A stretch of 64,000 nucleotides of DNA, from IMG/VR virus record IMGVR_UViG_3300042307_002096, positions 1 to 64,000 of that record; one strand, 5' to 3'. Below, piece after piece: positions 1 to 53,180 of the stretch. The DNA is from a virus. The position numbers were made by a program, and so were the translations under genes. The number at the start of each line of letters is the position of its first letter. Within the stretch, counting starts at the first letter, position 1. The notes under the pieces are model-generated. The model was not told the origin of the DNA and searched no databases. It saw only the letters and a program-made list of their open reading frames with translations.

Positions 1-72
1 AATTGGTCTTTTTATGGTTGTTAAAGATTTAGAGAAACAGATTCAAGCAATAAGAAAAAAATATTACGGAGA

Positions 73-428
73 ATAAATAAACTCATGAAGTCCAAAGACC
101 AACAATTGTTAGAAGAAGCTTACGGAGAAGTAACACTCAGACAAGCAGCTTCACCACGCGTGCAATCAATACTAGACTATAGTAAAAAGGTACTAGACGA
201 AACAGCAGAGACTGGAGAAAACTATCTCGAAGCATTAGATTATATTGCTACAAATATGAAGATTAAGCCAGGAATCTTAAAAAGTTTATTGCTTTTTCAT
301 AAGCTTATAACTGTAGAACAAGGATATGAGTATCAGAAATATGTTGACGGGGAAGAGTTTGCAAACGAGCAATAATTTATAAATAAACTCATGAAGTCCA
401 AAGACCAACAATTGTTAGAAGAAGCTTA
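73..428 (+). repeat. Exact 50-bp direct repeat (73-122 and 379-428) covering promoter plus leader-coding DNA
   Basis: ataaataaactcatgaagtccaaagaccaacaattgttagaagaagctta occurs twice. Confidence 0.9.
85..375 (+). CDS. Small protein with MKSKDQQLLEEAY leader (putative virion internal protein)
   Basis: Shared 13-aa N-terminus; TAAATA 5 nt upstream. Confidence 0.7.
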   Translation: MKSKDQQLLEEAYGEVTLRQAASPRVQSILDYSKKVLDETAETGENYLEALDYIATNMKIKPGILKSLLLFHKLITVEQGYEYQKYVDGEEFANEQ

Positions 429-621
429 TGTTAAGATCAATGAGATGCATGCTCCTGTAGCAGGCATTGATCCAGAGACCCAAGAGATGTATTGGGCTGC
501 TTTTGAGAAGTTTAAGAACGATGAGATCACTGCTCAGCAATGGTATGACATATGTGCAAAGCTTCTCGGAGACTTGATGGAGAAGAACAAGGACGTCTTT
601 GTTCGCCTTAAGCATAGATAA
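391..621 (+). CDS. Leader-family small protein
   Basis: MKSKDQQLLEEAY; TATAAATA upstream. Confidence 0.7.
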   Translation: MKSKDQQLLEEAYVKINEMHAPVAGIDPETQEMYWAAFEKFKNDEITAQQWYDICAKLLGDLMEKNKDVFVRLKHR

Positions 622-629
622 ATAACATC

Positions 630-839
630 ATGAAGTCCAATGATCAGACCCTCTTAGAAGAAGCTTACGAAAAAGTCTTGTTTGATAAAGGCAAACAAAG
701 CATCGAAGAACTTACTAAAGAAATCGACAAGCTTAAAGAGAGGCTTAAGAATGCTCATGACGAGAATGATAAGAAGCAATTGAATAAGATTCTTAAAGCT
801 AAGATGGAGAAGAGAGCAGAACTGGTTGGTAACAAATAA
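630..839 (+). CDS. Leader-family coiled-coil protein
   Basis: MKSNDQTLLEEAY; TAAATA at 619-624. Confidence 0.7.
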   Translation: MKSNDQTLLEEAYEKVLFDKGKQSIEELTKEIDKLKERLKNAHDENDKKQLNKILKAKMEKRAELVGNK

Positions 840-843
840 CCTT

Positions 844-1095
844 ATGAAATCAAAGTTCAATAGCATCATTAATAAGGTTTTAAACGAGTCTGCTGATCAG
901 TTTAGTATAGGAAACGAGTTGTATAATTTGTATACAAATTTGGACCCCAAAGCTAGAACAAAGTCTGGAGCGCTGGTATCAGAAGTACTCAAGAATATTT
1001 TGGATGAGTATGTTCAGATTATTGACCGAGCCAAACAAAATGCCGATCAGCCTGAAGCGATTCAATCATTGTTGCGGCAGCTGAGTTTGGATTAA
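844..1095 (+). CDS. Small protein with variant leader MKSKFNSIINKVLNE
   Basis: ATG at 844 preferred; CAAATA 5 nt upstream. Confidence 0.6.
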   Translation: MKSKFNSIINKVLNESADQFSIGNELYNLYTNLDPKARTKSGALVSEVLKNILDEYVQIIDRAKQNADQPEAIQSLLRQLSLD

Positions 1096-1112
1096 AAAAA
1101 AAATAAAATAGC

Positions 1113-1448
1113 ATGAAAAATAAAGATACACAATTGTTAGAAGAAGCTTATGGTAAAGTTGCCAAAGGTTCGTCGATGACTCCAGTCGATTCAAAATATA
1201 TATATTTCACCAACGAAAAGGAATTCTTTCGTTTGCATCCTTATAAGTTAATCCTTCCTGAGGATCCTGAAATGAAGAACATATCCAAAGACAAGAATGA
1301 TTGGAATGATGTACATGTTGCTGTTGGAGAAGACATTAAGGAACTTGGCTATGGAGACGAATCTATTGTTAACGATCGGTGGTACATTGTAGACAATTCA
1401 TTCCCAATGGACCATAAACACAGAGCGTTTATTAGTAAGAACAAATAA
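1113..1448 (+). CDS. Leader-family protein
   Basis: MKNKDTQLLEEAY. Confidence 0.7.
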   Translation: MKNKDTQLLEEAYGKVAKGSSMTPVDSKYIYFTNEKEFFRLHPYKLILPEDPEMKNISKDKNDWNDVHVAVGEDIKELGYGDESIVNDRWYIVDNSFPMDHKHRAFISKNK

Positions 1449-1452
1449 ACCC

Positions 1453-1794
1453 ATGAAGTCCAAGGACCAGACACTATTAGAAGAAGCTTATGATGAGATT
1501 GCTCGCAGACAACACGATTCGGATAATCGTTTGCCTCATATTACTAAAGCTTTGGAAGACAATAAAGATTTAAAATTCGAGAGTAATAGGGAATTTTATA
1601 AATGGTCAGAGAGACATTTGCCAGGCCTTTGGAATTATAGCCAAAGTGATCTACATCCTGTACTTGGACCCGAACTTCAGAAAGCTTACGAAGCTGGTTA
1701 TAATTCAGAAGATTATACATGTCCTTTTTCTGAAAAGACTCTTTGGTGGTGGATGGCAGAAGATGCTGCGGGTCAAGGCGCGGCGGACGTTTAA
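1453..1794 (+). CDS. Leader-family protein
   Basis: MKSKDQTLLEEAY. Confidence 0.7.
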   Translation: MKSKDQTLLEEAYDEIARRQHDSDNRLPHITKALEDNKDLKFESNREFYKWSERHLPGLWNYSQSDLHPVLGPELQKAYEAGYNSEDYTCPFSEKTLWWWMAEDAAGQGAADV

Positions 1795-1809
1795 AATAAT
1801 CCTTTTTAG

Positions 1810-1835
1810 TTGACTTGTCCATAGTCTGATATGAT
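1810..1835 (+). promoter_or_regulatory. Early-type promoter TTGACT-TGTCC
   Basis: Recurrent TTGnnn-TGTCC motif; -10 spacing irregular in this copy. Confidence 0.5.
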
Positions 1836-1844
1836 TATGGCAAC

Positions 1845-2075
1845 ATGAGCAATGTTATTAAAGACTACCTGGAGGCCTTGGATGAGAGGGCTAGTCAGGT
1901 AGGAGGGCTTAATCAAGGCCAGCAGTATATTATTGGATTCCTCTATGGGACATTAAAGAAACTTCAGCTACAGGGACACTATCTACATATACTTGAACGG
2001 GATACTAGACAGCTCAAGGGAATGATCCAATGGGAGAAAGACTGGAACGAGAGGAGAATGAATGACAACAACTGA
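1845..2075 (+). CDS. Hypothetical protein
   Basis: ORF downstream of promoter motif. Confidence 0.6.
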   Translation: MSNVIKDYLEALDERASQVGGLNQGQQYIIGFLYGTLKKLQLQGHYLHILERDTRQLKGMIQWEKDWNERRMNDNN

Positions 2076-2256
2076 ATACTTGGTGAATTGCCTTGACGAG
2101 GCACATGGATCTCTAGTGGCTGCTGCTAAGATTGCTCACCTTGAGAAGCATCCAGAGGCTGCAGCAATCTCTAAACTAATTGATGCACTGGAAGATATTC
2201 ATTGCAATGTATCACCTGACTGGTATAATATAAAGGAGTTAACAAATGACAAATAA
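2062..2256 (+). CDS. Hypothetical protein
   Basis: Overlaps upstream ORF end. Confidence 0.55.
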   Translation: MTTTEYLVNCLDEAHGSLVAAAKIAHLEKHPEAAAISKLIDALEDIHCNVSPDWYNIKELTNDK

Positions 2257-2413
2257 ACAAACTAACGGCCAATTCGAGACCACAGTGAAAGATCTTCAAC
2301 AGATCTTGGAGACACTCCAGCGTGCCGACCAACAATGGCGCAATGTACATCTGCAATGAGAAAAAAGAAAGGCTCAAAGAGAATTTCCTGGAAGAAGTCT
2401 TAAATAAAATAGC

Positions 2414-2896
2414 ATGAAGTCCAAAGATCAAATCCTCTTAGAAGAAGCATATCAGACTGTTGTTGAGGGCAGGTATATAGATAGTTACGGTAGATTTAAA
2501 TATCCCAGTAAATATAAAAACAGAGGAGTCACTGGCGATCCAGACTTAGACGTCCGTGAAGCTGATCGTAACGCTGGCCTAGAAGATGACTTTGTACCTT
2601 CAGAAAATCAAATGCCTGAACTTTCTGCTCCTGTTGCTTCTTCGACTCCAACAGAGCCGAATCAAACAATTGATCCTGCACTGCTGGCAGGCAAAAAAAT
2701 CTCCTTTACTGTATGGGATCCCGGCGAATATGTAATTACAATGGATGGTAAACCAACTGGTGGTACGTTTTCAAAAAACGAAGCAGAACAAGTAACTATA
2801 GCATTATCATCTGCAGAAAACAATCCGGAATCCTTAAACCATCCCCTGGTTCAAAAGTGGGTCCGTACAGCCAAAAATCTTGGCCACATAAAATAA
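2414..2896 (+). CDS. Leader-family protein
   Basis: MKSKDQILLEEAY; TAAATA upstream. Confidence 0.7.
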   Translation: MKSKDQILLEEAYQTVVEGRYIDSYGRFKYPSKYKNRGVTGDPDLDVREADRNAGLEDDFVPSENQMPELSAPVASSTPTEPNQTIDPALLAGKKISFTVWDPGEYVITMDGKPTGGTFSKNEAEQVTIALSSAENNPESLNHPLVQKWVRTAKNLGHIK

Positions 2897-2929
2897 ATTA
2901 GTTACTCTGATAGCGGTTTTTAATTTTTG

Positions 2930-2958
2930 TTGGCTTGTCCTGTATAATGACCTAAACT
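2930..2958 (+). promoter_or_regulatory. Early-type promoter TTGGCT-TGTCC...TAAACT
   Basis: 17-nt spacer. Confidence 0.55.
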
Positions 2959-2967
2959 GTATTCATT

Positions 2968-3117
2968 ATGAAATTATTTCATTTTGTGTTAGCAGTTTAT
3001 TCCTTACTTGTAGTGACGTTGTTGGCCTCTTGTGCGTATAAAGTTAATAATGATTTGCAGCTGCAGTCAATCAAACGTGCAGCAAAATTTGTTTTAAATA
3101 CTCCAAACTTGCAATGA
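2968..3117 (+). CDS. Small lipoprotein-like peptide (49 aa, not in ORF track)
   Basis: MKLFHFVLAVYSLLVVTLLASC lipobox. Confidence 0.5.
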   Translation: MKLFHFVLAVYSLLVVTLLASCAYKVNNDLQLQSIKRAAKFVLNTPNLQ

Positions 3118-3281
3118 ATACAACAAAGAAAGAAATCAAAATACAAATTGGTAAGTTGTGCGATCGAATTGATTCCACGCCTGTAGGAACTCCGGCTTAT
3201 AAAAAGGCTTTATTGAAGATCAAAAATTTACAAAAGCTTTTAATTGCAACTTACACAAGACCAGCGGACTATAGTGGCTAG
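3114..3281 (+). CDS. Hypothetical 55-aa protein (not in ORF track)
   Basis: ATGA overlap with upstream ORF. Confidence 0.5.
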   Translation: MNTTKKEIKIQIGKLCDRIDSTPVGTPAYKKALLKIKNLQKLLIATYTRPADYSG

Positions 3282-3387
3282 CGACAGTCAACTTCTGACT
3301 AACGCATATGCTCAATATATAATAATCCTGCAGAAATGCTTATTAAAAGTTGACATGTCCAACAATTCACAGGAAGGTATATAAACA

Positions 3388-3675
3388 ATGAAACATTCAC
3401 TACTACTTTTGATTTCAACTACTGCTTTGGTAATGACAGGTTGCGTTGCTACTGATCCATACTATAGCGGATATCGATATATTCCTAGGAATTGCCAACC
3501 AGTTCCATATGCCCAGCGCATTCAAAGCCAAAGTTATTATCAGACTCCTCCTCAGTATTACAGAGTACGAGATTATAGTTGCAATCCTAATACTCGTTAC
3601 AGGAACTACTCAAATGCTCCTCTAATCGTTGAGCGTCCATCTGGAACAATAATTGTTCCGCGGAGCTGGGATTGA
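3388..3675 (+). CDS. Tyr/Pro/Arg-rich lipoprotein
   Basis: Signal peptide with LVMTGC lipobox; TTGACATGTCC at 3350-3360. Confidence 0.6.
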   Translation: MKHSLLLLISTTALVMTGCVATDPYYSGYRYIPRNCQPVPYAQRIQSQSYYQTPPQYYRVRDYSCNPNTRYRNYSNAPLIVERPSGTIIVPRSWD

Positions 3676-3678
3676 TAT

Positions 3679-3951
3679 ATGACTCGCAGGAAGTTTGTAA
3701 AGCAACAGAAACAATTTTCAACAAAAATTATAATTGCCATAACCGTTGCGATCAACTTAGGACTAGCAGGAGCAATCCAGTTAACTCCTATTGTTACCAA
3801 GATGGTTGTTTCATTCTGGAACGCTCCTATAGAAATTAAAAAATCTACTGTAACAGCTCCGTACTCGGATGCACTTGAGAAAGCATTTACTGCATTAAAA
3901 TTAAGCAAAGAACCAAAACCTAACAATCTACCAAAACAAAAAAATAGTTAA
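3679..3951 (+). CDS. Single-TM membrane protein
   Basis: Basic N-terminus plus hydrophobic stretch. Confidence 0.55.
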   Translation: MTRRKFVKQQKQFSTKIIIAITVAINLGLAGAIQLTPIVTKMVVSFWNAPIEIKKSTVTAPYSDALEKAFTALKLSKEPKPNNLPKQKNS

Positions 3952-4080
3952 CATGCAACTAAATTATAACGGAGGACATTGCTAATAATATGGATATGAC
4001 TAACATTCTTCTACTGTTGATTGTAGTGATACTGATCATTAAAAAATAACTTATACCGTAATTGCCTTGGTGACCGGATA

Positions 4081-4632
4081 ATGAAAAAAACTTCAACAAA
4101 AATACACGATGCGTGGTTGTTAACTCCTACTAAGTTTGGGGACGAACGCGGGTTTTTCATGGAAACATGGAACCACCAAACATTTAGCGAGATGGGGCTT
4201 GAGTTGACCTTCGTGCAAGACAATCACAGTCGCTCGTCTAAACATGTGCTCCGCGGACTGCATTATCAATCTGGTGAAGCGGCGCAAGGCAAACTAGTTT
4301 GGGTAACTTCTGGTATTGTGTTTGATGTGTTAGTTGATCTTAGACAAAGTTCTCCCACTTACGGCGTATGGGATGGGTACATGCTCGATTGTGCAGAACA
4401 CAAACGTTTGTGGGTGCCTCCTGGATGTGCACACGGATTTCTTGTACTAAGTGATATTGCAGACTTTAATTATAAAGTTACAGCTCCGTATCGCCCACAA
4501 ACAGAGAAGGCACTATTGTGGAATGATAAAACGCTAAACATTGAATGGCCTCTAGAGGTTGGAGTTGAGCCTTTAGTTTCCCCAAAAGATGCTCAAGCTG
4601 CTACGTATATTAATTGCGAAAAGTATAACTGA
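4081..4632 (+). CDS. rmlC: dTDP-4-dehydrorhamnose 3,5-epimerase
   Basis: GDERGFFMET, QDNHSRS, LRGLHYQ, PGCAHGF motifs. Confidence 0.95.
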   Translation: MKKTSTKIHDAWLLTPTKFGDERGFFMETWNHQTFSEMGLELTFVQDNHSRSSKHVLRGLHYQSGEAAQGKLVWVTSGIVFDVLVDLRQSSPTYGVWDGYMLDCAEHKRLWVPPGCAHGFLVLSDIADFNYKVTAPYRPQTEKALLWNDKTLNIEWPLEVGVEPLVSPKDAQAATYINCEKYN

Positions 4633-4684
4633 GAATTTTATCGTTGATTATTCTAACAGTATACCGGAGAGTAATAACTCATAT

Positions 4685-5587
4685 ATGATAACTGGAGCAA
4701 CTATTAATAACGGAGACATTCAACTATGGGAAAACAATATTGTTCAACGGACAATTAATGGACCATTTACAGCTGTTGCATCAAACGGTACACACGTGTA
4801 TGGTCTACACAAGGGTGGAAATGTCCTAGTTTACGAAATAAGAGAAAAAGGCAAGTCAACCGATACCATGAAGTCGTTTCAGCCGCGACTAATTCGGACC
4901 GAATCTGTTGGCCATGGAGCAATTTCAGTCTCATGCGGAGGAGGCTCAGAATCGTTTCGAGTAGAATATAATGACGGTAGAACATATGTAAAAAATAGCT
5001 CAGGTGCTACGATGGAGGGAAGGACTAAAGCTGCATTAAATGAAGCATCTAAGAAGACGGAATCAAACAAATTAAACTCAGAGTCCACGCAATCTAAACC
5101 AACCTATGAAGTTAGCGAGGAAGCCATACAGCACTTTGATAGCAAGTTGTCTGAGGTTTGGTATATTCTCAAAAAAACATGTCGTACCAGGCAACATTGG
5201 ATTCTTACTACGCTTGCTGCATGTTTTTGTGTATCAACATTATATGGAGTTGGCAGCGTCGCGTTTGCTGTATGGAGCAGGGATAATATGTGGATCGCGT
5301 TGCTAGTCACTTCTCTTTCAGCAATATTTTTAGGGCTTACATATAACCTTATTGCGCAAATTATTAAGCGTAGCTGGTATAGTCTTCCAGCACTAATCCT
5401 GTCATTGTTTATTATGGATAAGGTACACGATGTAGCGGGATTGGTGTGTGTCGTTTTGTCGATTGGGCTGTGGTGTTGGCCTGCATGGCCATTTATAGCA
5501 TTGTTTTTTTTGATCCTAGCTAAGATTGCATGCAATTATAAAGGCGGTGATTCCCATATGTTTGGTACCAAGATGGCTGGAAGGTAA
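4685..5587 (+). CDS. Multi-pass membrane protein with soluble N-terminal domain
   Basis: About 4-5 hydrophobic segments in the C-terminal half; start uncertain. Confidence 0.6.
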   Translation: MITGATINNGDIQLWENNIVQRTINGPFTAVASNGTHVYGLHKGGNVLVYEIREKGKSTDTMKSFQPRLIRTESVGHGAISVSCGGGSESFRVEYNDGRTYVKNSSGATMEGRTKAALNEASKKTESNKLNSESTQSKPTYEVSEEAIQHFDSKLSEVWYILKKTCRTRQHWILTTLAACFCVSTLYGVGSVAFAVWSRDNMWIALLVTSLSAIFLGLTYNLIAQIIKRSWYSLPALILSLFIMDKVHDVAGLVCVVLSIGLWCWPAWPFIALFFLILAKIACNYKGGDSHMFGTKMAGR

Positions 5588-5603
5588 TTTCATTATACAA
5601 CAG

Positions 5604-5622
5604 AAAAGCCACTGGCTTTTTT
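5604..5622 (+). terminator. Probable intrinsic terminator
   Basis: aaaagcc-act-ggctttt followed by T run. Confidence 0.5.
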
Positions 5623-5636
5623 GATAATTAGGTTTA

Positions 5637-5915
5637 ATGAATTTGGAGGATAATATTACTGAACTCAGCAACAATTGGTACGAATTAATTGCTGACGACC
5701 ATAAAGATAACGATTGCCATTGGTGCATAGAAGCTCGTTGGAGCTACGGATATCCTCCAGTATATACCGTAACTCATTTTGGACGCCTCTTTGATCGTAT
5801 CGAAGAAGAATGCGAAACTTATGAGGAAGCATTACGGTTGCTTGACAAGTACCTAAGGTGTGCTATTACAGAAAAGCTAGTCGACCAAGAAGCAAATAAT
5901 TCCGAAGAGTTGTAA
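5637..5915 (+). CDS. Hypothetical protein
   Basis: ORF track. Confidence 0.6.
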   Translation: MNLEDNITELSNNWYELIADDHKDNDCHWCIEARWSYGYPPVYTVTHFGRLFDRIEEECETYEEALRLLDKYLRCAITEKLVDQEANNSEEL

Positions 5916-5929
5916 TAGGTAAATTAAAT

Positions 5930-6520
5930 TTACCAAGGATAAATTTGAATACCTTTTTCTTGAAGCGACTGTATAATTTTATTCTTTCTAGCGGCTGCAG
6001 CAGTTTTATCTTTCATTGCCCAATCATGAAATTCAACCCAGAACACCTTAAAATTTTTGAGTTTGTCTTCATTAATCATTTTTTCTAGGATATCAAACTC
6101 GCAACCTTCAATATCCATCTTGCAGTAGATTTCACAATCCGCTCCAAACTTTGATTCAACCCATTGCGGAAAATTGATACACTCAACATCAACTTGGTTT
6201 TTATATTTGTGTAGCGTTGATTCTGGAGCCCATTCATTCATGCTCAGTATTGTTGATCCCATTCCAGTTTCAACATCCTCGTACTCGTCAACGGTTTCAA
6301 TATTCATTTGAACAACTCCGTCCTTAGTGCCAACTGCTTTATTGTGAAATGTGATATTTAGTCCACTTTTAGCTGACCTTTGCTGGCCATTTAAATAATC
6401 ATATGTACGTGGATTTGCTTCAAAAGTATGAACTTCCCACGTATTATCAATTTGTAATATTTGCATGAATCTTTTTAATCCTTCTGCAAAGTGGGTGCCT
6501 AAATCCAAAAAAACTTTCAT
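5930..6520 (-). CDS. FkbM-family SAM methyltransferase
   Basis: FLDLG, FEANP, KMDIEGCE, VEFH motifs. Confidence 0.85.
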   Translation of the reverse strand: MKVFLDLGTHFAEGLKRFMQILQIDNTWEVHTFEANPRTYDYLNGQQRSAKSGLNITFHNKAVGTKDGVVQMNIETVDEYEDVETGMGSTILSMNEWAPESTLHKYKNQVDVECINFPQWVESKFGADCEIYCKMDIEGCEFDILEKMINEDKLKNFKVFWVEFHDWAMKDKTAAAARKNKIIQSLQEKGIQIYPW

Positions 6521-6561
6521 GCATAAACTTAATAAATTTTAACAATAATACAACTTGTTTA

Positions 6562-6590
6562 TTGCAATGTCCATTATATTTTCGTATAAT
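6562..6590 (+). promoter_or_regulatory. Early-type promoter TTGCAA-TGTCC...TATAAT
   Basis: 17-nt spacer; ATG 6 nt after -10. Confidence 0.65.
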
Positions 6591-6596
6591 ATTGGC

Positions 6597-7115
6597 ATGA
6601 TTAAACAGAAAAAAGTATCGATGAACCGCAAGAGCATTAATTCTCCATACTTTGCAATTCGAAAGCAAAAGGTTAAATGGCCAACAATTAGACATGCTTA
6701 TATGAACGATTCTAACGTAGAAGTTTTGAAAAATTTTGTTACTAAGAAAGGTCGGTCTATTATTTTTTTGGACGGGAAGTATGACACTACTCTAAATCGC
6801 TACAAGAACCTTCCTTCTGAAGAGCGAGCGGTTTGTTGGGAGTTTATGTGTAGAGAGAAAGGAGTTAAGGGAGGTATTTTTATGCTCTGTTGGCTTGGGA
6901 ACTTTCATAATGGTTGTATCTTCCATGCTTCTCCTCAGTTCCCTCAGATCCAATGTTGGTATGAAGCAATGGGATATGAACAAGCTAATTTATTTTTCGA
7001 AAGACAAGCGTTTAAGATCTATAAAGAAGTAGTATCAATTGTGCACAACGGAGAAAAGATTGTTGACAAAGAAGTAGAGGAATTTATTAATAACGGAATG
7101 AATTCTATTAAATAA
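6597..7115 (+). CDS. Hypothetical protein
   Basis: Start placed after promoter. Confidence 0.6.
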   Translation: MIKQKKVSMNRKSINSPYFAIRKQKVKWPTIRHAYMNDSNVEVLKNFVTKKGRSIIFLDGKYDTTLNRYKNLPSEERAVCWEFMCREKGVKGGIFMLCWLGNFHNGCIFHASPQFPQIQCWYEAMGYEQANLFFERQAFKIYKEVVSIVHNGEKIVDKEVEEFINNGMNSIK

Positions 7116-7119
7116 ACTT

Positions 7120-7779
7120 ATGAAATCCAAAGACCAAATTCTTCTAGAACAAGCATATTTGAAAGTGCTTATTAAAGAAGAATCTATTCTTGTTCCAAGA
7201 AGGTCTAGAGAAGAGCGAGAAAAGAACTATAAAATAGCCATTTTAAGAAAGATTCAAGAATATATTAAAAACGGCTCTACAGGAGATTTAAATTTATACA
7301 ATACTCCAATTGCTTCTCTTCCAAATAATTTAAAAGTTAGTGGAAGTTTAAATTTAAACAATACTCCAATCACCTCTCTTCCAAACAATTTAAAAGTTGG
7401 TGGAGATTTAAATTTAGCCAATACTCCAATTACCTCTCTTCCGAATGGTTTAGAAGTTGGTGGAAGTTTATATTTAATAAAAACTCCAATTGCTTCTCTT
7501 CCAAACAATTTAAAAGTTAGTGGAGATTTAGATTTAAGTAATACTAAAATTACTTCTCTTCCAAATAATTTAAAAGTTGGTGGATATTTAGATTTAAACA
7601 ATACTCCAATCACTTCTCTTCCGACTGGTTTAGAAGTTGATAGCCATTTAATTTTAAACAATACTCCAATCACTTCTCTTCCAAACAATTTAAAAGTTGG
7701 TGGAAGTTTGGATTTAATTAATACTAAAATTACTTCTCTTCCAAATAATTTAAAAGTTAGTGGAGAGATTTATAGATAA
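7120..7779 (+). CDS. Leader-family protein with eight 20-aa LRR-like repeats
   Basis: MKSKDQILLEQAY plus GxLxLxNTPITSLPNNLKVx repeats. Confidence 0.85.
   Translation: MKSKDQILLEQAYLKVLIKEESILVPRRSREEREKNYKIAILRKIQEYIKNGSTGDLNLYNTPIASLPNNLKVSGSLNLNNTPITSLPNNLKVGGDLNLANTPITSLPNGLEVGGSLYLIKTPIASLPNNLKVSGDLDLSNTKITSLPNNLKVGGYLDLNNTPITSLPTGLEVDSHLILNNTPITSLPNNLKVGGSLDLINTKITSLPNNLKVSGEIYR
7282..7761 (+). repeat. Intragenic tandem repeat, 8 x 60 bp
   Basis: Repeat aligns line to line at a 60-nt period. Confidence 0.95.
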
Positions 7780-7788
7780 ATATTTAGA

Positions 7789-8565
7789 ATGAAATCCAAA
7801 GACCAAACACTATTAGAAGAAGCTTATAACTACGTAATAGAAAAGATATCTACAGCAAAATCTCTTTTACAACAAGGAAAATTAAGTCAAGAAGACTTCG
7901 AAAATATAGTAAACTCCGACTTAACTAAACAAAAAAAATACGTTGGTTGGATGGCCAGTCAATGGGTTGCTGGTAATATTTCTGATATAGATGTTTTAAG
8001 AAATACTATAGAAGAATATGATTCTTTTGTTAACAGAAATAAAGTCAAAAACAAAGACATATATCAATATAAATCATTTAATGAATTAAAAAAAGAGATT
8101 GATCGTCTTAACGAAACTGGTGAAAACATTTCCGTAAAAGATTTAGAAAGCGATTATGATATTGTTAGAGATGATGACTCCCTTTTAATTGCTTCGCCAC
8201 ACACACACGAAGCATCTAGAAAGTTAGGTCTATCTCAATTTGCATATAGAAGCTGTGAAGGAGGAGGGAAAGATTCTGCTTGGTGCACAACATACAAAGC
8301 CCCCAACCACTTTAATGATTACTATTACACGCATAACGTAACGTTTTATTATATAAAGGTTAAGTCTTCAGAAATTTTAAAAAAATTACAACAATCTGGT
8401 TTTGGACCGGAATTTAGCGTTGCTGCTATTGCAGTTTTAGACCAAGAAACGTCTAAAAAAGCTTCTAAAAGGGGATATAAAAACATGGATGGTTATGATG
8501 GCCAAGACAAACAATTTAAAGGGGAAAAACTAAAAAAATACTTGGATATAATCGGAATTAGCTAA
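7789..8565 (+). CDS. Leader-family protein with WCT-motif domain
   Basis: MKSKDQTLLEEAY; DSAWCTT..HFNDYY. Confidence 0.7.
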   Translation: MKSKDQTLLEEAYNYVIEKISTAKSLLQQGKLSQEDFENIVNSDLTKQKKYVGWMASQWVAGNISDIDVLRNTIEEYDSFVNRNKVKNKDIYQYKSFNELKKEIDRLNETGENISVKDLESDYDIVRDDDSLLIASPHTHEASRKLGLSQFAYRSCEGGGKDSAWCTTYKAPNHFNDYYYTHNVTFYYIKVKSSEILKKLQQSGFGPEFSVAAIAVLDQETSKKASKRGYKNMDGYDGQDKQFKGEKLKKYLDIIGIS

Positions 8566-8593
8566 AAGCAATTGAACATAAATTAATATTGTC

Positions 8594-8956
8594 ATGAAGT
8601 CAAAAGATCAAATTTTACTCGAAGAAGCATATAATCAAATTACTCAAAATACAATTAACCAAAATTCTTTTTTAACTGAATCTGCTATAGACAGCGAAAT
8701 TAAAGATTGCGAAGATGTTATTAAAAAGCTTGCTAGTGGAAAATTCAAAAACGAATCAGACGAGGTAATTGAACACATTAAGAAGTGCAAACATGTTTTT
8801 TCTATTACTCAAGACAGCAACGGACAATATACTATTATCATTAAAGACTCCGCTCTCCGTAATGTCGAAAAAGCCTATCCAGAACTAGTGGGCAAATTTA
8901 AATCTGCAGCTGATTGCAAAAAAGACGTAGCAAAATGCAGAAAAGATAAGCTTTAA
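8594..8956 (+). CDS. Leader-family protein
   Basis: MKSKDQILLEEAY. Confidence 0.7.
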   Translation: MKSKDQILLEEAYNQITQNTINQNSFLTESAIDSEIKDCEDVIKKLASGKFKNESDEVIEHIKKCKHVFSITQDSNGQYTIIIKDSALRNVEKAYPELVGKFKSAADCKKDVAKCRKDKL

Positions 8957-9002
8957 GCAAAAAAGCTAAGCTTTACTTAATTGAGCTTATAAAAATTAAA
9001 TT

Positions 9003-10519: not shown

Positions 10520-13009
10520 TCATTCCTTTGTTTTCTTTTTTATTTGAGTTTTCTTTGGTTTTACTTCTTTAAAGGTCAACACCTCGCCTTCCTTTTCTGC
10601 GTTTACTAAGCTTCCTGGCTTGAACGTGTCTTTAAGTATTTCTTCTGCCATGGGATCTTCGATATATTTTTCGACTGCACGTCTCATTGGTCGAGCTCCG
10701 TATGTAGGATCATATCCTTTTTCAATTAAAAGCTCTTTAGCTGAATTACTCAACACAAGTTCAATTCCTCGTTCTTTTAATCTGCTTGTAATTTTTTGAA
10801 TTTCTAAATCTACAATTTTAATAAGTTCTGGTTTATCCAGCGAACGGAACACAATCATGCTATCCAAACGATTGATCAATTCTGGTTTAAAATGCATTTT
10901 AGCTTCTGCTAGAATTTTTTCTTTCATTGATTCGTGGTCACTAGACGGTTCAGCTTTAACGCCAAAGCCGAGACTCGTTTGCTTTTTGGCCATGGTAGCT
11001 CCGACATTAGAAGTCATGATGATAATCGTATTGCGAAAATCTACTTTTCTTCCAAACGAGTCAGTTACCTTTCCCTCTTCCAATATCTGCAAAAGAAGAT
11101 GAAGTGCATCCGGATGTGCTTTTTCTACTTCATCAAATAAAACAACGGAGTACGGTTTACGTCGAATTGCTTCAGTAAGCTGTCCTCCTTCTTCATATCC
11201 AATGTATCCTGGAGGAGGTCCGATCAACCGAGATACTGAAAATTTTTCCATGTATTCGCTCATGTCGATTTGAACAATAGATTCTTTTGTTCCAAATATA
11301 AGTTCTGCAAGAGATTGAGTAAGATGTGTTTTTCCTACACCAGTTGGACCTAAAAACAAAAATGAACCAATAGGACGTCTGGGGTCTTTGAGGTCTGCGC
11401 GCGCTCGGCGCATCGCTTTACTGATAGAAGCAACTGCCTCGTCTTGGCCAATAACCTTCTCCTCTAAATCTTTTTCCATCGTCAACAGTTTTGCTGCTTC
11501 CTTTTGTTCAATTTTAGTCAAAGGGATTCCTGTCCATTTAGCAAGAACTTGCATAATTTGATCTTCTCCTACTACGACTTCTTTTTCATGTTTGTCTTTG
11601 TTCCACTGCTCAATTGCGTCTTTTAGTAAATTTTGAACATTTCGTTCTTGGTCTCTAATGTCAGCTGCTTCTTCAAATTTTTGAGAAGAAATTGCATTAA
11701 GCTTTTGTTTGTTTAACTCTGAAATAGAATTTTCAAACGCACTAAAGTTCGGAGAAGGTACGCGAGCATCTATTCGTGCTCGGGAACCAGCTTCATCCAT
11801 AAGATCGATTGCTTTATCGGGAAGAAATCTATTAGAAAGATATCGCTCTGACAGTTTCGCAGCAGCCTCTAAAGAGCTGTCAAGAAATTTGGCTTTATGG
11901 TGTTGTTCATACTTTGGTCTAATTCCTTGTAGGATCTTTATTGTTTGTTCAATCGAAGGAGCATCTACTTTAATTTGCTGAAATCTTCTTTCTAAAGCAG
12001 CATCCTTTTCAATGTATTTTCTGTATTCGTTGAGAGTAGTTGCCCCGAGTAGTTGCAATTCGCCTCTGCTTAATGCTGGCTTAAAAATGTTTGATGCATC
12101 CATCGAGCCAGAAGCAGCCCCTGCTCCGACCATAGTGTGAATCTCATCTATAAACAAAATAACATTTCCTTCTGTCTTGACCTCGGTCATTATTGATTTA
12201 ATGCGTTCTTCGAATTGTCCTCTGTACATGGTTCCAGCAACAATCAATGCTAAATCCAATGCAATAACACGTTTATTTAAAAGAAGGTCAGGTACATTTT
12301 TTGAGGCAATTGATTGAGCTAATCCTTCAGCAATAGCCGTTTTACCTACACCAGCTTCTCCTATTAATATTGGATTATTTTTAGTACGACGACAGAGAAT
12401 TTGAATTGCTCTCTCAATTTCTTCTTCTCTTCCAATCACAGGATCCAATTCATTTTTTTCTGCTAGCTCAGTCAAGTCTTTTCCGTAAGTTGCAAGAGAA
12501 GAGCTTTTCTTTTTGGATTTTTCTTTTTGCGGTTTTTCCTCACCAGCTGGAACAAGCTCATTGGGTTTATAATTGGGATCGAGTTTGTTTAAAATTTCTT
12601 CTTTTACGGAATCGTAATCCAATCCGAGTTTGTTTAAAGTAATCGCTGCAGTTCCGTTTCCTTCGACAATGATACCAAGAAGAATATGCTCAGTGCCAAC
12701 ATACGTATGACTCATTTTTTTTGACTCTTTATCTGCTAAAGCAAGAACTTTTTTTACTCTTGGAGTCATCTGGATATTGTTTTGTTGAGTAATTTTGTCG
12801 TCATTTGGTTCGAGCTCCTCAATCAATTCGTAAATATCCTCAAGCTCTATGTCAAAATTTTTTAAAACACTAGCAGCAAGTCCTTGACCAATTTTTATTA
12901 AACCAACCAAAAGATGTTCCGTGCCTATGTAATTATGTTTAAGACTTTCAGCTTCTTTTCTGGCTAATGCTAGCGCTTGCTGAGCTCGAGGCGTAAAATT
13001 GTTTGACAT
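10520..13009 (-). CDS. clpC: ClpC AAA+ unfoldase
   Basis: Two Clp_N repeats, GEAGVGKT and GPTGVGKT Walker A, UVR middle domain (FEEAADIRD), SLGF ClpP-docking loop. Confidence 0.95.
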
Positions 13010-29523: not shown

Positions 29524-29916
29524 ATGAAATTTGATGATCTATACAACAGAGTGGTTTTTGTCGAGCAAGAAAATACAGAGGTTGCTCATCCGGATGATTT
29601 TAATGACGTCGAGCCAATGCCTCTTGCTGAGCCATCTTTAGAGTCAGACGAACCTGCTCTAGCAGCCGACACTCAAGCAACTTCAGGACTTACTGATTAT
29701 ATCAAATTAACGTTAGATTTTGTTAAAAAGTTACAAGACTCGGATGGAGGAGAGTCTTTACAAACATTAGTAAAGCGTTTGGATTTTCCTGGTTCTGGGT
29801 TTGATGGTATTAGTTCAGGAATGAGTTCAAAAATTTTAGCCGCAGTCAAAGCTGTCCAAGACGTTACAGCTGAACTAGTTTCTCGCAACATTCACGCTGC
29901 TAAAAACAACTCTTGA
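29524..29916 (+). CDS. Acidic protein with MKFDDLYNRVVFVE leader
   Basis: TAAATA upstream. Confidence 0.6.
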   Translation: MKFDDLYNRVVFVEQENTEVAHPDDFNDVEPMPLAEPSLESDEPALAADTQATSGLTDYIKLTLDFVKKLQDSDGGESLQTLVKRLDFPGSGFDGISSGMSSKILAAVKAVQDVTAELVSRNIHAAKNNS

Positions 29917-32548: not shown

Positions 32549-32848
32549 ATGACAAAGACGTTCGATCAAATTTGCAAAGGAATTCTTGGAGAGATGGTGA
32601 CTACTCCCACGACACCTACAGTGACTCCGGGACAGACTCCAAAGCCAGGAACGCCAGCTCCTAGTCAACTAACTACACAAAATCAGCAAAATTCTTCTCA
32701 TGACCTTCCAGAAGAAGTTACTAAATTGTTCATCGCTGCTAAAACTCCACAAGAAGTCAATGCTGCTTATTTAAAGCTTCAAGAGCTAAACAAAACAAAA
32801 CCAACTCAGCCTGCACCACAACCAAATGCAGCCAACCAACAAGCCTAA
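32549..32848 (+). CDS. Pro/Thr/Gln-rich protein with MTKTFDQICKGILGE leader
   Basis: TAAATA at 32538-32543. Confidence 0.6.
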   Translation: MTKTFDQICKGILGEMVTTPTTPTVTPGQTPKPGTPAPSQLTTQNQQNSSHDLPEEVTKLFIAAKTPQEVNAAYLKLQELNKTKPTQPAPQPNAANQQA

Positions 32849-33453: not shown

Positions 33454-33762
33454 ATGAAATTCCAATTTGATCAATTAGTATTAGAGTTATTAAAGGAAAA
33501 CAAAAATTATGATCCAGGAGCTGATGGGTATTTAGAATCAAAAAATTTCAATTTAACTAAAGAAATTAAAGAAACCGTAGCAAGTATGCTCAAAGGAGAG
33601 TTTTCCTTACATGGAGTATATAACACGGACATAATTCAAAATCTCAGATTTGAAGAAGGAGTTATTAAAGGTACGCACTTTACTGGCGGCAATTTTGCTT
33701 GTAAGCTTAATAATATTAAGCCACAAAACGTATCCGTAGCAGTTAAAAATAAAACAAAGTAA
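33454..33762 (+). CDS. Hypothetical protein with MKFQFDQLVLELLKE leader
   Basis: TAAATA upstream. Confidence 0.6.
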   Translation: MKFQFDQLVLELLKENKNYDPGADGYLESKNFNLTKEIKETVASMLKGEFSLHGVYNTDIIQNLRFEEGVIKGTHFTGGNFACKLNNIKPQNVSVAVKNKTK

Positions 33763-43283: not shown

Positions 43284-44230
43284 AAACAATTGCATTTCAT
43301 TCTAATCAATTAGGCATTAGAGGGACGGAAGTTGCTTTATATGATTATGCTCTTTATAATGAAGAAATTTTAAACAATAAATCATACATTATTTCTTGCG
43401 CAAAAGCAGATCTTGCTACTTTAAAAAAATTTCAAAATAAATTTGAAGTATTTTTGTACGATCAATTTCATGATTGTTTTGATTTTGTTAAAGACAAAAA
43501 TATTGAATATGTGTATTATATTAAAGCTGGAGATAACGACGGAAAAATAATTCCTAAGGTTAAAAATTTAATTCATGTTGTATTTCAAAACAAAGACGTG
43601 CATGGAGACAAATACGCATATATTTCAAATTGGTTAGCCAACAAAATGAATATGGAAAGCAGTTATGTACCTCATATTGTTTCTTTACCGGAACCAGAAA
43701 CAAATTACAGAAAACAATTAGGTATTTCCAAAAAAAATATCGTTATTGGAAGATACGGAGGATACGATGAATTTGATCTTCCGTTTGTTCATAAAGAAAT
43801 TTATAATATATTGCAATTAAGAAGCGATATTAAATTTTTGTTTATGAATACAAGACCGTTTGGACCAGAACATTCAAATATTATTTACATCAACGGAACT
43901 CACAACATTCAAAACAAGTCTAATTTTATTAATACATGTGATTATATGATTCACGGAAGAAATCATGGAGAAAGTTTTGGTTTAGCAATTTGTGAATTTT
44001 TGTATGGCGGAAAACCTGTTATTAGTTGGAAAGACGGATTAGATAGACACCACATTGAATTGTTAAAAAACAAAGGAATATGGTACGAGAATTCAATTCA
44101 ATTATATAATATTCTTATTAACCTTGATAAACAATACAAAGATATTACATCAAGTGATTGTAAAATGTTAGTTAAACAATTTTCCCCAAAAAACGTTATG
44201 GACCGTTTTAATAAAATATTTTTGCAATGA
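43280..44230 (+). CDS. GT-B (GT4-like) glycosyltransferase
   Basis: RGTE..LYDYA, GESFGLAICE. Confidence 0.8.
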   Translation: MKTIAFHSNQLGIRGTEVALYDYALYNEEILNNKSYIISCAKADLATLKKFQNKFEVFLYDQFHDCFDFVKDKNIEYVYYIKAGDNDGKIIPKVKNLIHVVFQNKDVHGDKYAYISNWLANKMNMESSYVPHIVSLPEPETNYRKQLGISKKNIVIGRYGGYDEFDLPFVHKEIYNILQLRSDIKFLFMNTRPFGPEHSNIIYINGTHNIQNKSNFINTCDYMIHGRNHGESFGLAICEFLYGGKPVISWKDGLDRHHIELLKNKGIWYENSIQLYNILINLDKQYKDITSSDCKMLVKQFSPKNVMDRFNKIFLQ

Positions 44231-45084
44231 AAATTTTATATTTGACTAAAGGAGATCACGTAGATTATCAAAATGATTGTTTGCTTATCGGATTTAAAGA
44301 ATTATTTGGATCAGATGTAGTGGATTACAATAAGCAATCTCACAATTACGTTACATATGATGAGCAAGCAGCTAAAAGTTTGTACGGAATGGGAATGTCC
44401 GTTACAAGAATACTACCGGATTTAGAAGTAGATAGAACAGACATTACTGCTAAAATTAAAAATAAATATTTTGATTATATTGTATACGGCTCGATTTGGA
44501 GATGTAACGACTACATTCAAACAATTCTTGAATATTACCCAAAACATAAGGTTATTGTTGTTGATGGAGAAGACGAATCCAATATTCACAAAATTTTTGA
44601 TTTAGGAATTTTATACTTTAAAAGAGAATTGCAATATAAGCATGAAAGATTGTTTCCAATATCTTTTGCTATACCTACCTCTAAAGTAAATTTTATCAAA
44701 AATAAAACAAGAGATATTGCTATCTGTAATCCTGCAGACCGCTCAACTTACATTTATAAAAATGAAAAAGATTATTATGAAGGTTATCAAGAGTCTCGTA
44801 TTGGTATTACTATGAAAAAAGCCGGCTGGGATTGTATGCGGCATTATGAAATTTTGGCTAATGGTTGTTTACCATATTTCATTAATATTGATAAGTGTCC
44901 TAATTTTACGATGACGTCTTTTCCAAAACAATTATGCATAGATTTAATCAATAATGCAAAAAATGTTAATGCTCAAACATTATATGATCAATTTGCTGAC
45001 AAATTCGAGAATCATTTGTTAACGCACAATACCACGAATGCTTTAGCAAAATACGTAACTAATTGTTTGTTAACTAACATATGA
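44227..45084 (+). CDS. Putative glycosyltransferase
   Basis: DGED, YFKREL, KKAGWDCMRHYEILANGC.PYF. Confidence 0.65.
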   Translation: MKILYLTKGDHVDYQNDCLLIGFKELFGSDVVDYNKQSHNYVTYDEQAAKSLYGMGMSVTRILPDLEVDRTDITAKIKNKYFDYIVYGSIWRCNDYIQTILEYYPKHKVIVVDGEDESNIHKIFDLGILYFKRELQYKHERLFPISFAIPTSKVNFIKNKTRDIAICNPADRSTYIYKNEKDYYEGYQESRIGITMKKAGWDCMRHYEILANGCLPYFINIDKCPNFTMTSFPKQLCIDLINNAKNVNAQTLYDQFADKFENHLLTHNTTNALAKYVTNCLLTNI

Positions 45085-45695
45085 CAACAAACGTATTTTA
45101 TCATTTATCTTCTTTAAATGATTACAAAGCGCGGTTTTGCTCTACTTACGAAAAGATCATGAAGAGTGGATTACTTGACAAGATTAATAACTTCTTTGTT
45201 ATTACAGACTCTACTTCTGCTCATTTTTTAAATATGTTAAACGTCAATGTTATTAAGGTTGACAGCTTAATGGCGAGCGAGCGCCCAACGTTAATGTTTT
45301 TAAAAAATTTTGCTTTAGAGAATGAAGGATACAGTTTATATTTGCATTGTAAAGGTTCGTCTCGACCATACGATCAACGTATTCAGGATTGGATAAATAT
45401 GCTTGAGTATTTTTGCATTGAGCAATTTGAACGATGTATTGAAGAGTTAAAAAACAATTATAATGTTGTAGGATGCAATTTTAAAAAAGATGCTGATGAG
45501 CCACATTTTTCTGGTAATTTTTGGTGGGCCAATAACAATTATCTTGCTACACTACCAGAATTAAATTCTGACGATAGAATAAGATGCGAAATGTGGATAG
45601 GTAAAGGAGTAAATTTAAAAGCTAAAACCTTACACGATTCACCAATAAACCACTATAACAAAACATATCCAGCCAGTAAATATACAACAAATTAA
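45081..45695 (+). CDS. Glycan-cluster-associated protein
   Basis: E.PTL, LYLH.KG, HFSGNFWW, EMWIG. Confidence 0.6.
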   Translation: MTTNVFYHLSSLNDYKARFCSTYEKIMKSGLLDKINNFFVITDSTSAHFLNMLNVNVIKVDSLMASERPTLMFLKNFALENEGYSLYLHCKGSSRPYDQRIQDWINMLEYFCIEQFERCIEELKNNYNVVGCNFKKDADEPHFSGNFWWANNNYLATLPELNSDDRIRCEMWIGKGVNLKAKTLHDSPINHYNKTYPASKYTTN

Positions 45696-45699
45696 CATT

Positions 45700-46293
45700 A
45701 TGGAAAGAACAGAAATTATTAATCGTCTTATTGCAAAACACAACTACAAAAATTATCTTGAAATAGGAGTTCAATACGGTCACAATTTTAGAGACATAAA
45801 TTTACCAAGAAAATGCAAAACCGCTGTTGATATTAAAAAGCAAATTCTAGATTTTGAATATTTTCTAGACCACGAGACCACGAGTGACGAATTTTTCAAA
45901 CAAAATACAAAAAAATACGACATTATTTTTATTGACGGGGACCATAGCTTCGAACAATCATATTTAGACGTAACAAATGCTTTGCAGTGTTTAAATCTTG
46001 AAGGAACTATTGTTTGCCACGATTGCTATCCAACAACAGAAGAGCTTGCTAGCTTTAGTTTTATGGGAACGGTATACAAGACCATTTTAAAGTTGCGGAT
46101 GACAAGAACTGATTTAAATATTTTTGTTGTAAATACTGATTGTGGTTGCGGAGTAATACAACGTTGTGCTCCGCAAGAAAAACCACCCGTTCAACATGAT
46201 GAATCATTATATGTTTACAAAAATTTTATAACAAGAGCAAAAGAATATTTAAATTTAAAAGAAACCAGCGAGTTTATTTCAACGTTAAATTAA
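45700..46293 (+). CDS. Class I SAM methyltransferase (Methyltransf_24-like)
   Basis: YLEIG, DIIFIDGDH, G.IV.HDC. Confidence 0.85.
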   Translation: MERTEIINRLIAKHNYKNYLEIGVQYGHNFRDINLPRKCKTAVDIKKQILDFEYFLDHETTSDEFFKQNTKKYDIIFIDGDHSFEQSYLDVTNALQCLNLEGTIVCHDCYPTTEELASFSFMGTVYKTILKLRMTRTDLNIFVVNTDCGCGVIQRCAPQEKPPVQHDESLYVYKNFITRAKEYLNLKETSEFISTLN

Positions 46294-46299
46294 TAAATT

Positions 46300-46848
46300 A
46301 TGATTAATAAAGAAAAATGGACCTTGAAAAGAAGAGATGGCGTATCTTCAGCATGGAAAGGTTTGGAAGATTACATCAATCCAATTATTAAGAATTTTAA
46401 CATACAACCCAACACTGCCTTAGAATTTGGAGTAGATCTTGGTTACAGTGCTGATATTTTTTCACAAGTATTTAATAAAGTTGTTGGGGTTGATTCGTTT
46501 ATTGGAGACGTTCACATTAGACACGAGCAAGGAGATGGTTTTTATCACTCTGTTAAAAATTCTTTTATTGACACAAACGTAGAAATCATTAGATCCTCTT
46601 TTGAAGACTTTATTGCGAATAACAAAAATCAATATGATTTAGTTCATATAGATATTGTTCATGAATATGCTCCAACTTTTGCATGTGCTGACTGGGCTAT
46701 TCAACACAGTAATGTAGTTATTTTACATGACACTGTTTCATTTCCGGAAATTTATAAAGTCTGTGAAGATATTTCCTGTAAACACAACGCTAAATTTTAC
46801 AACATAACTGATCATTTTGGTTTGGGAATTCTATACAAAAATAGTTGA
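46300..46848 (+). CDS. Class I SAM methyltransferase
   Basis: LEFGVD.GYS, DLVHID..H.Y, HDT. Confidence 0.8.
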   Translation: MINKEKWTLKRRDGVSSAWKGLEDYINPIIKNFNIQPNTALEFGVDLGYSADIFSQVFNKVVGVDSFIGDVHIRHEQGDGFYHSVKNSFIDTNVEIIRSSFEDFIANNKNQYDLVHIDIVHEYAPTFACADWAIQHSNVVILHDTVSFPEIYKVCEDISCKHNAKFYNITDHFGLGILYKNS

Positions 46849-46880
46849 AAAATAAAATAGCTACTGTACTCTAGTAACAG

Positions 46881-48677: not shown

Positions 48678-48708
48678 ATTAAAATCAACACACCTTTTAA
48701 ATAACACT

Positions 48709-49938: not shown

Positions 49939-49969
49939 TTTTGTTAATTTTTTTGGTATTATAAAACGC

Positions 49970-52522: not shown

Positions 52523-52530
52523 ATAACATT

Positions 52531-52809
52531 ATGTATGCTGCTGAACAACTTTTTCAGGCGCTTTCATACGAAGAGCTCTATTACACTCTTCGAAGCATTG
52601 CTGATGAAGATTCGTATTTTGATGATTTTTTAGACAATAAAATTTTAGAAGATTTTTTGTACATGCTGGAAATTTATGATATATTATTTTTATCTTCAGA
52701 TGGCAGAGTATTGCTTACGCAAAAAGGAGAAAAGGTTTTGCAGTATGTCGGGCGCATTGTTGATTTAGATAAAATTAATAATAAGGTAAAAAGGAAAAAA
52801 TATGAGTAA
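52531..52809 (+). CDS. Hypothetical protein (possible winged helix)
   Basis: LTQKGEK motif; TAAATA 5 nt upstream. Confidence 0.55.
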   Translation: MYAAEQLFQALSYEELYYTLRSIADEDSYFDDFLDNKILEDFLYMLEIYDILFLSSDGRVLLTQKGEKVLQYVGRIVDLDKINNKVKRKKYE

Positions 52810-53158: not shown

Positions 53159-53180
53159 TTTAGTTTAAGAGTCAACTGCG

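Follow-up and report, generated by a model that had tools for sequence, protein, structure and literature searches.

The internal head proteins of T-even phages are encoded at loci with a conserved leader and promoter-bearing flanks (Repoila et al. 1994, as relayed in PMC3012670 and PMC12373910), and the proteins are otherwise mutually unrelated, the leader alone being held in common (PMC3012670, PMC12373910). Three of them, Ip1, Ip2 and Ip3 of T4, each disable a specific GmrSD restriction enzyme (PMC12373910). Here we describe an array of comparable design in the first 64,000 nt (hereafter the window) of a 78-kb IMG/VR contig, IMGVR_UViG_3300042307_002096. Between positions 73 and 8956, nine open reading frames (ORFs) on the + strand open with MK[SN][KN]D[QT]xLLE[EQ]AY and diverge completely afterwards. 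We call this N-terminus the leader, the coding sequence that follows it the cargo, and the two together with the upstream promoter-like box a cassette.

This kind of arrangement is already known from T-even phages. Like the capsid-targeting sequence (CTS) of IPI, IPII and IPIII, the leader is a short N-terminal segment (10–19 amino acids, aa) that starts with MK, its eighth residue being hydrophobic and its tenth Glu. As in T-even phages, the tagged proteins are small and unrelated, their loci differ between close relatives, and shared promoter and leader DNA has there been proposed to mediate shuffling (PMC3012670, PMC12373910). Both groups have a gp21-type protease; the T4 enzyme cuts after (L/I)xE (PMC9026906). 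The leader is unlike the CTS in having no homology to MKT(Y/F)(Q/K)EF... beyond M-K and LxE, and in the conservation of EAYxK[IV]L past the proposed cut. The copy number also differs, at least 9–15 per partial genome, whereas T4 has 3 and the T-evens together about 10 types, and the set with the new leader, at least 458 clusters, is much larger than the T-even set. Finally, the box here abuts the ATG without a Shine–Dalgarno sequence, whereas T4 ip genes have AAAGGAAA upstream. We found the leader sequence itself (LLEEAY) in no paper and in no cultured phage.

Effectors of the type VI secretion system with MIX or PAAR domains, and LXG effectors of the type VII system, join one conserved N-terminal delivery module to many interchangeable cargos. 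The logic of a delivery module with swapped cargos is the same; the differences are that these effectors serve cellular secretion, have much larger N-terminal domains and are unrelated in sequence and machinery. Another comparison is with the PeSLs of T4-type phages, which Arbiol, Comeau and Krisch are said to have described in 2010 as non-coding early promoters with stem-loops. PeSL cassettes resemble ours in that repeated promoter sequences flank novel ORFs in hyperplastic regions, for which modular shuffling has been proposed (PMC2839356). They differ in that the repeat here consists of a late box and 13 coding codons, so the exchanged unit carries a protein tag too; upstream of the cassettes we saw only a late-type box. 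In the phiKZ-like giants (201phi2-1, phiKZ gp175, SPN3US), a diverged gp21-like protease cuts many head-internal proteins on the C-terminal side of a Glu (PMC9026906, PMC5694885), but their propeptides are long and protein-specific rather than one shared short leader, and the motif has been described only as short and Glu-ending. What stands out in the present locus is its scale, the independence of its leader from the T4 sequence, and a tag fused to a late box that directly adjoins the start codon.

One leader and one late box on unrelated cargos

The nine ORFs, numbered here as cassettes 1 to 9, start at positions 85, 391, 630, 1113, 1453, 2414, 7120, 7789 and 8594. A repeat search recovered a 53-nt family of nine copies that spans the upstream box, the ATG and 13 codons; inside it, positions 73–122 and 379–428 are identical over 50 nt. 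Exact TAAATA precedes six of the nine ORFs, with a spacer to the ATG of 5 nt (85, 391, 630 and 7120), 6 nt (7789) or 7 nt (2414), and the ORFs at 1113, 1453 and 8594 have the variant boxes AAAATAAA, ACAAATA and TAAATTA, respectively. An initial annotation of the window had described nine ORFs with a common leader and complete divergence after it, a 50-bp exact block and TAAATA before most of them; all of this was confirmed, for every start and with all nine on the + strand. A six-frame scan of the window found no LLE[EQD]AY outside the nine ORFs, and a looser leader pattern gave nothing further across the 78-kb contig. Nine is nevertheless a minimum, because the array touches the 5' end of the contig (the first cassette starts 73 nt from it).

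The leader consensus is MKSKDQxLLEEAYxK(I/V)L, and conservation continues beyond the pattern used in the search, in the form AYxK[IV]L(E). Among 65 distinct leaders, Leu8 and Leu9 are each encoded by all six codons and Ala12 by all four, and leaders compared in pairs show 0.21, 0.11 and 0.38 differences per site at the first, second and third codon positions. This synonymous variety, together with third positions being the most variable, indicates selection on the amino acids. L8 and E10 were fixed by the scan pattern in the 65-leader set, so their invariance there is built in; both are also invariant in 146 profile matches. Residues 8, 9, 12, 13, 16 and 17 form a hydrophobic stripe, the leader is helical in both AlphaFold models (cassettes 6 and 8), and it is predicted to form an amphipathic helix.

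To survey the leader more widely, we used a degenerate 39-nt DNA pattern that permits all synonymous codons. It matched 51 stretches on about 40 IMG/VR contigs and had no match in 596 Gb of prokaryote genomes (GTDB), from which no host clue was obtained; the leader is phage-specific, and its recurrence lies well outside what chance would give. With a 30-column leader profile, 458 proteins among 1.84 billion cluster representatives matched at E ≤ 0.001, with listed lengths of 29–520 aa, and the match begins at residue 1 in 143 of the best 150. The leaders of all nine ORFs in the window also lie at the extreme N-terminus, within a length of 10–19 residues.

The contig is 37% complete (CheckV) and encodes T4-type gp43, gp41, UvsX, a gp46-like protein, large terminase, sheath and tube. 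No GenBank phage encodes a DNA polymerase more than 32% identical to the one on this contig, and a nucleotide search of GenBank phages with positions 1–9000 gave zero matches; judged from these genes, the source phage is a myovirus of a deep-branching, uncultured T4-like lineage. Among its relatives, polymerase identity is 82–83% for G001 and G004 and 46% for G002 and G003. G001 is complete (217 kb, with terminal repeats), as is G002; a further relative, G006, is a 66-kb fragment. The motif search over this genome and its relatives that the initial annotation had proposed gave at least nine leader copies here, four in G001, one in G002 and 15, in two arrays, in G006. The fourth copy in G001, an ORF at 206456, was found by the leader profile. 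Occurrence in phages with polymerases 83% and 46% identical indicates that the leader is old within the family. The second G006 array has a shorter leader variant, MNKDQKLLEEAY, which points to leader subfamilies within one genome. At the locus of that array, L075 (G006 44000–54000), this variant, one residue shorter, reads MNKDQ(K/R)LLEEAYxxICES.

Late expression of the cassettes, as first proposed, is borne out by the box. ATAAATA followed by 5–6 nt and ATG precedes cassettes 1, 2, 3 and 8, and (A/G/T)ATAAATA with the same spacing also stands before the sheath (65037) and tube (67214) genes of the contig; because box and spacing are the same, we class the cassettes as late genes. These two boxes lie beyond the window, at contig positions 65024–65039 and 67202–67216. 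With the box relaxed to TAA[AG]TA, 24 such ORFs are found on the contig. In G001, 36 of 74 ATAAATA sites lie 3–9 nt, mostly 5, before an ORF, among them the sheath gene and several ORFs of more than 1000 aa. The T4 late box, TATAAATA, is located at −13 to −6 (PMC1524935), and with a box in that position a 5-nt spacer places the transcript start on the A of the ATG. No Shine–Dalgarno sequence is present upstream of the cassettes, and their mRNAs are probably late and essentially leaderless. Further late-type boxes, 5–6 nt before an ATG, occur in the window at 22281 (− strand), 48709, 52531, 54456 and 62026. A Shine–Dalgarno sequence is missing at the sheath and tube genes and at these others too, so that late mRNAs in general would be leaderless.

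The cargos had been described as unrelated (coiled coil, leucine-rich repeat (LRR), WCT domain), and this too held: with the leader removed, the nine formed nine separate clusters in an all-against-all BLASTP comparison. The same diversity is seen beyond the contig, where 85 leader ORFs from the first loci gave 51 BLAST clusters and 220 leader proteins gave 128, with cargo sizes from 56 to 443 aa. In searches of Pfam, PHROGs and NCBIfam, none of the nine cargos had a match that passed the curated cut-offs; the similarities seen, to LRR, coiled-coil and SlrP-LRR entries, were weak. The cargo of cassette 7 consists of eight 20-residue LRR units. That of cassette 8 is an alpha/beta domain with an invariant WCTT motif and has 807 detectable homologues, the majority of which have other N-termini (for example, MKFNNPKLLTENK..ILEN and MKTFKQLYSILLSES) before the same conserved body. 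Leader and cargo were therefore joined in cassette 8 by fusion, not by common descent. Cassette 8 also has a second site of the h-x-E type, V16-I17-E18, and hydrophobic-x-Glu is invariant across the family. A remote relative of this family is a protein of Pseudomonas phage PA5oct whose annotation as structural comes from electrospray ionization tandem mass spectrometry (ESI-MS/MS) of virions.

The structure search of cargos against anti-defence proteins that the initial annotation had suggested was run for cassettes 5, 6 and 8 and gave no known match. For the cassette 8 model (mean predicted local distance difference test score (pLDDT) 83), Foldseek found no PDB match at E ≤ 0.001, and the best VIA-align result had Z 6.3 over 75 helical residues. 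Its matches in BFVD were uncharacterized phage proteins, some fused to LRR domains, together with the PA5oct structural protein and weak PcfJ-like rows. The best Z for the cassette 6 model (pLDDT 68) was 5.6, and cassette 5 gave nothing in the ESM Atlas.

Comparison with relatives revealed rapid exchange of cargos around stable genes. In G001, despite a DNA polymerase 83% identical, we detected the non-leader anchor genes of the array but not one of the nine cargos; in G006 the same anchor genes are flanked by different cassettes. Cargo turnover, which had been predicted together with recombination in the shared 5' block, is thus apparent; identical cargo sets in related phages, which the initial annotation had named as a refutation, were not observed in these relatives. 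The recombination part of that prediction is best illustrated by cassette 6, where about 100 nt of upstream flank and the 39-nt leader are about 80% identical to G006, and identity drops to 36% immediately 3' of the leader; at this breakpoint G006 has a cargo of the cassette 2 family instead. One leader protein (P0005) has a decayed leader followed by an intact one, and three others (P0002, P0059 and P0073) have a second, internal copy of the motif; such tandem or internal copies look like recombination scars. One leader on unrelated cargos, at loci that vary between close relatives, is what distinguishes T4-type internal proteins, and that is what we observe here.

A candidate capsid-targeting propeptide

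We favour the interpretation that the leader is a lineage-specific capsid-targeting propeptide on polymorphic internal proteins, and give it a probability of roughly 0.65. T4 propeptides have 10–19 residues, and removal of the propeptide frees the protein from the T4 core (PMC9026906). In IPIII the first 10 residues are enough for packaging, with residues 4 and 7 governing targeting and residues 8 and 10 governing processing (PMC9026906). In the T4 record, the N-terminal sequence of both ipII and ipIII is MKTYQEFIAE|A, that of ipI is MKTFKEF...ITE|A and that of gp24 is MAKINELLRE|S (bars mark cut sites, which are inferred in the capsid sequences below). The leader's L8 and E10 coincide with the IPIII processing positions, at which T4 ipII and ipIII have I8 and E10, and the (I/L)xE anatomy ascribed to the leader at the outset is thereby upheld. 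So is the T4-type context: a Peptidase_S77 (gp21-type) prohead protease is present in the complete or near-complete relatives G001, G002 and G003. At the position of FLTE|A in T4 gp23, the capsid proteins of these three phages have CLRE|G, CIEE|G and CLNE|T, so that [L/I]xE is retained at the propeptide boundary. Every part of the original proposal that sequence analysis can address agreed with the prediction.

The region is a hypervariable late-gene array in which each cassette consists of a late box, 5–7 nt, a leader of 13–19 residues and an arbitrary cargo. Following this logic, the amphipathic leader would dock the newly made protein into the prohead scaffolding core. The gp21-type protease would then cut either behind the invariant L8-L9-E10 or one residue later, between L9-E10-E11 and A12, where the site would mimic E|A of T4. 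The freed cargo would remain in the head with the DNA and enter the host alongside it. About 50 nt, the box plus the leader codons, are common to the cassettes, and homologous recombination there would bring late expression and packaging to any coding sequence; recombination within this shared block would explain the fast cargo turnover. What we infer are docking to the scaffold, the site of cleavage, presence of the proteins in the virion, their injection and any counter-defence role.

Several observations weigh against this interpretation. The leader shares only M1, K2 and the (L/I)xE spacing with the T4 sequence, which places it outside the T-even leader family, although it may work alike. 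A12, Y13, K15 and I/V16 are strongly conserved beyond the proposed cut, which a simple removable tag does not need; the protease might cut elsewhere, or the leader might not be cleaved at all. Portal, prohead protease and capsid genes are absent from the 78-kb contig, which is incomplete and lacks the head module, so the protease and the capsid sites were read in relatives. The leader-bearing phages are known from sequence alone and have no cultured relative, the nearest GenBank phage having a DNA polymerase 32% identical. Across family and fold searches, no cargo matched a known anti-defence protein or a solved fold. The other N-termini of cassette 8 relatives were not shared by a second gene within 10 kb at 74 loci, with L155 as the sole exception. 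Scaffold mimicry is unsupported as well, because the G001 scaffold does not appear among the matches of the leader profile. The motifs do have a certain likeness: T4 gp22 starts MLKEQLIAEA (LIAEA), compared with FIAEA in the T4 leader, and scaffolds of the clade have TIEEAF or AIAEAF near the N-terminus, compared with LLEEAY.

The conservation past the putative cut would be accounted for if the leader were a docking helix for some other partner, perhaps uncleaved: a baseplate, neck or decoration site, a phage ClpC-type unfoldase, or a host target. The continuous stripe at residues 8, 9, 12, 13, 16 and 17 is as expected of a binding helix, some proteins (P0002, P0059 and P0073) have two motif copies including an internal one, and both this phage (829 aa, 10520–13009) and G001 encode a Clp-type ATPase. 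Even so, N-terminal peptide tags are not known to guide proteins to ClpC, and the cargos are small, of mixed charge and unrelated, as T-even internal proteins are. L-x-E at residues 8–10 also recurs in the IPIII and gp24 propeptides (PMC9026906), and a gp21-type protease is present in the clade. On balance we regard docking to another partner as unlikely.

A second alternative, in which the 5' block acts as a nucleic-acid signal (a translation-initiation or stability element of a leaderless late mRNA, or a recombination site) with the peptide as a by-product, draws on the box lying 5–7 nt from the ATG without a Shine–Dalgarno sequence, so that the first codons would be the 5' end of the mRNA, and on the two copies with 50 identical nt. 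It is very improbable, given that synonymous sites are free while the amino acids are invariant, with six Leu codons in use at positions 8 and 9, and that the sheath and tube genes have the same box and spacing with no leader. Least credible of all is a single paralogous family with diverged C-terminal parts and the N-terminus as its functional core: tandem small genes with similar starts are typical of paralogue expansion, but the architectures differ (LRR solenoid, alpha/beta WCTT domain, coiled coil, disordered linker plus small domain; 56–443 aa), the WCTT family occurs with other N-termini in hundreds of phages, and DNA homology between relatives stops abruptly at the leader end, with tandem-leader scars (P0005).

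If the capsid-targeting interpretation is correct, the principle extends past the T-evens to a deep branch with a DNA polymerase about 31% identical to that of any isolate, the promoter-plus-tag module acts as a recombination handle, and a second, independent tag becomes available for packing foreign proteins in phage heads. A 13-residue motif that is a packaging tag would pick candidate virion-internal, injected proteins from metagenomes (at least 458 clusters, nearly all without an assigned function and from uncultured phages), and by analogy with the T4 Ip proteins the leader set would be a candidate list for counter-defence screens. More tentatively, the leader may mark the largest known phage-injected repertoire, hundreds of unrelated families, LRR and PcfJ-like ones included, in a widespread uncultured T4-like clade. 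These would be maintained through a recombination handle that is itself coding and at the same time confers leaderless late expression, as a phage counterpart of polymorphic effector systems. On that view the conserved EAYxK(I/V)L beyond the cut might serve a further purpose, perhaps in leaving through the tail or in the first contact with a host target.

Other N-termini and repeated motifs came to light in the same genomes. A 185-aa late-box ORF in G001 (102111–102668, − strand; L067:2111–2668), about 3.4 kb from the capsid gene, contains three internal leader-like motifs (FKDTQTLSGLYEGI, SKDQLIEQA and SKDQDMLAEAYNVI) followed by a Lys-rich tail, and its product could be a multiply cleaved prohead core protein. 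A homologue search with this head-region ORF, whose motifs are of the KDQxLxE(A)Y type, gave one weak match only. A second T4-like type of N-terminus is found on late-box ORFs (MTKTFDQICKGILGE, MKFQFDQLVLELLKE, MKFDDLYNRVVFVEQ and MVRFADFYKILTE|A), located at window positions 32549–32848, 33454–33762 and 29524–29916 and at contig positions 70100–70939. Similar starts in G001 and G006 are MKKSFDQLFSE, MTKEFDTLLEQ, MSKFDTLLEA and MTPKFDQLCES, and the type may be a second class of prohead-protease propeptides. G001 also has paralogues at 111069, 175711, 177099, 178492, 180489 and 181616 (78–662 aa), mostly behind late boxes, with the N-terminus ..GIPISEDQCIGDSL.Y.N.AF..LS; these may be fibre or baseplate-attached proteins with a common anchor.

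Cassettes and other genes of the array

The cassettes and anchor genes are all encoded on the + strand. Cassette 1 (73–375; ORF 85–375) has the box AATAAATA 5 nt before the ATG at 85, the leader MKSKDQQLLEEAY and an acidic orphan cargo of 83 aa. Cassette 2 (379–621; ORF 391–621) has a perfect TATAAATA, also 5 nt before its ATG at 391, and is the cassette that shares 50 nt identically with cassette 1; its cargo family also sits behind the leader in G006. The box of cassette 3 (618–839; ORF 630–839), GATAAATA, overlaps the stop codon of cassette 2 and is followed after 5 nt by the ATG at 630, the leader MKSNDQTLLEEAY and a basic, coiled-coil-like cargo. At 832–1095, ACAAATA lies 5 nt before an ATG at 844, and the ORF starts MKSK and continues FNSIINKVLNE|S in place of DQxLLEEAY; it has its own LxE and is a possible tenth cassette, diverged or decayed.

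Cassette 4 (1099–1448; ORF 1113–1448) has a degenerate box, the leader MKNKDTQLLEEAY and an orphan cargo with only two relatives (90–95% identical) among 5.8 billion proteins. Cassette 5 (1441–1794; ORF 1453–1794), with ACAAATA 5 nt before the ATG at 1453, carries an acidic orphan cargo of 100 aa. Two conserved non-leader anchor genes follow at 1845–2256; their products are 48–76% identical to those of G001 and G006, and the flanking cassettes differ in each genome. Cassette 6 with its shared upstream flank occupies 2315–2896 (ORF 2414–2896; TAAATA, 7 nt, ATG at 2414), and in its protein the leader helix is connected by a disordered linker to a small domain at the C-terminus. A third anchor gene, at 6567–7115, encodes a product 83–84% identical in G001 and G006, again with different adjoining cassettes in each genome.

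Cassette 7 (7109–7779; ORF 7120–7779; TAAATA, 5 nt, ATG at 7120), the LRR cassette, has Gln at leader position 11 (LLEQAY). Cassette 8 (7776–8565; ORF 7789–8565) has GATAAATA 6 nt before the ATG at 7789 and carries the WCTT-motif domain of the large conserved phage family. The LRR cargo thus lies directly 5' of the WCTT cargo (7120–8565), and several of the proteins that resemble the WCTT domain by fold in BFVD bear an LRR annotation; cassettes 7 and 8 may be a split form of one LRR–WCTT architecture. Cassette 9 (8580–8956; ORF 8594–8956; variant box TAAATTA) has a Cys-containing cargo of 107 aa that is 53% identical to a leader-bearing ORF of G006.

Ordinary non-cassette genes occupy 2.9–7.1 kb. 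Besides the three anchor genes, those between the cassettes include a pair of ORFs resembling lipoproteins, one for an RmlC-like cupin and one for a membrane protein. Moron-like genes within the array lie at 2968–3117, 3388–3675, 4081–4632 and 5930–6520 (− strand). Labelled by sequence reading, two array ORFs have lipoprotein-type signal peptides (…LLASC and …VMTGC), one is a candidate RmlC/cupin epimerase, and 5930–6520 resembles an FkbM-type methyltransferase. Downstream of the array, the Clp-type AAA+ ATPase gene of the window (− strand) matches PHROG 4871, 'ATP-dependent protease', at E 1e-259, and its G001 homologue is 58% identical.

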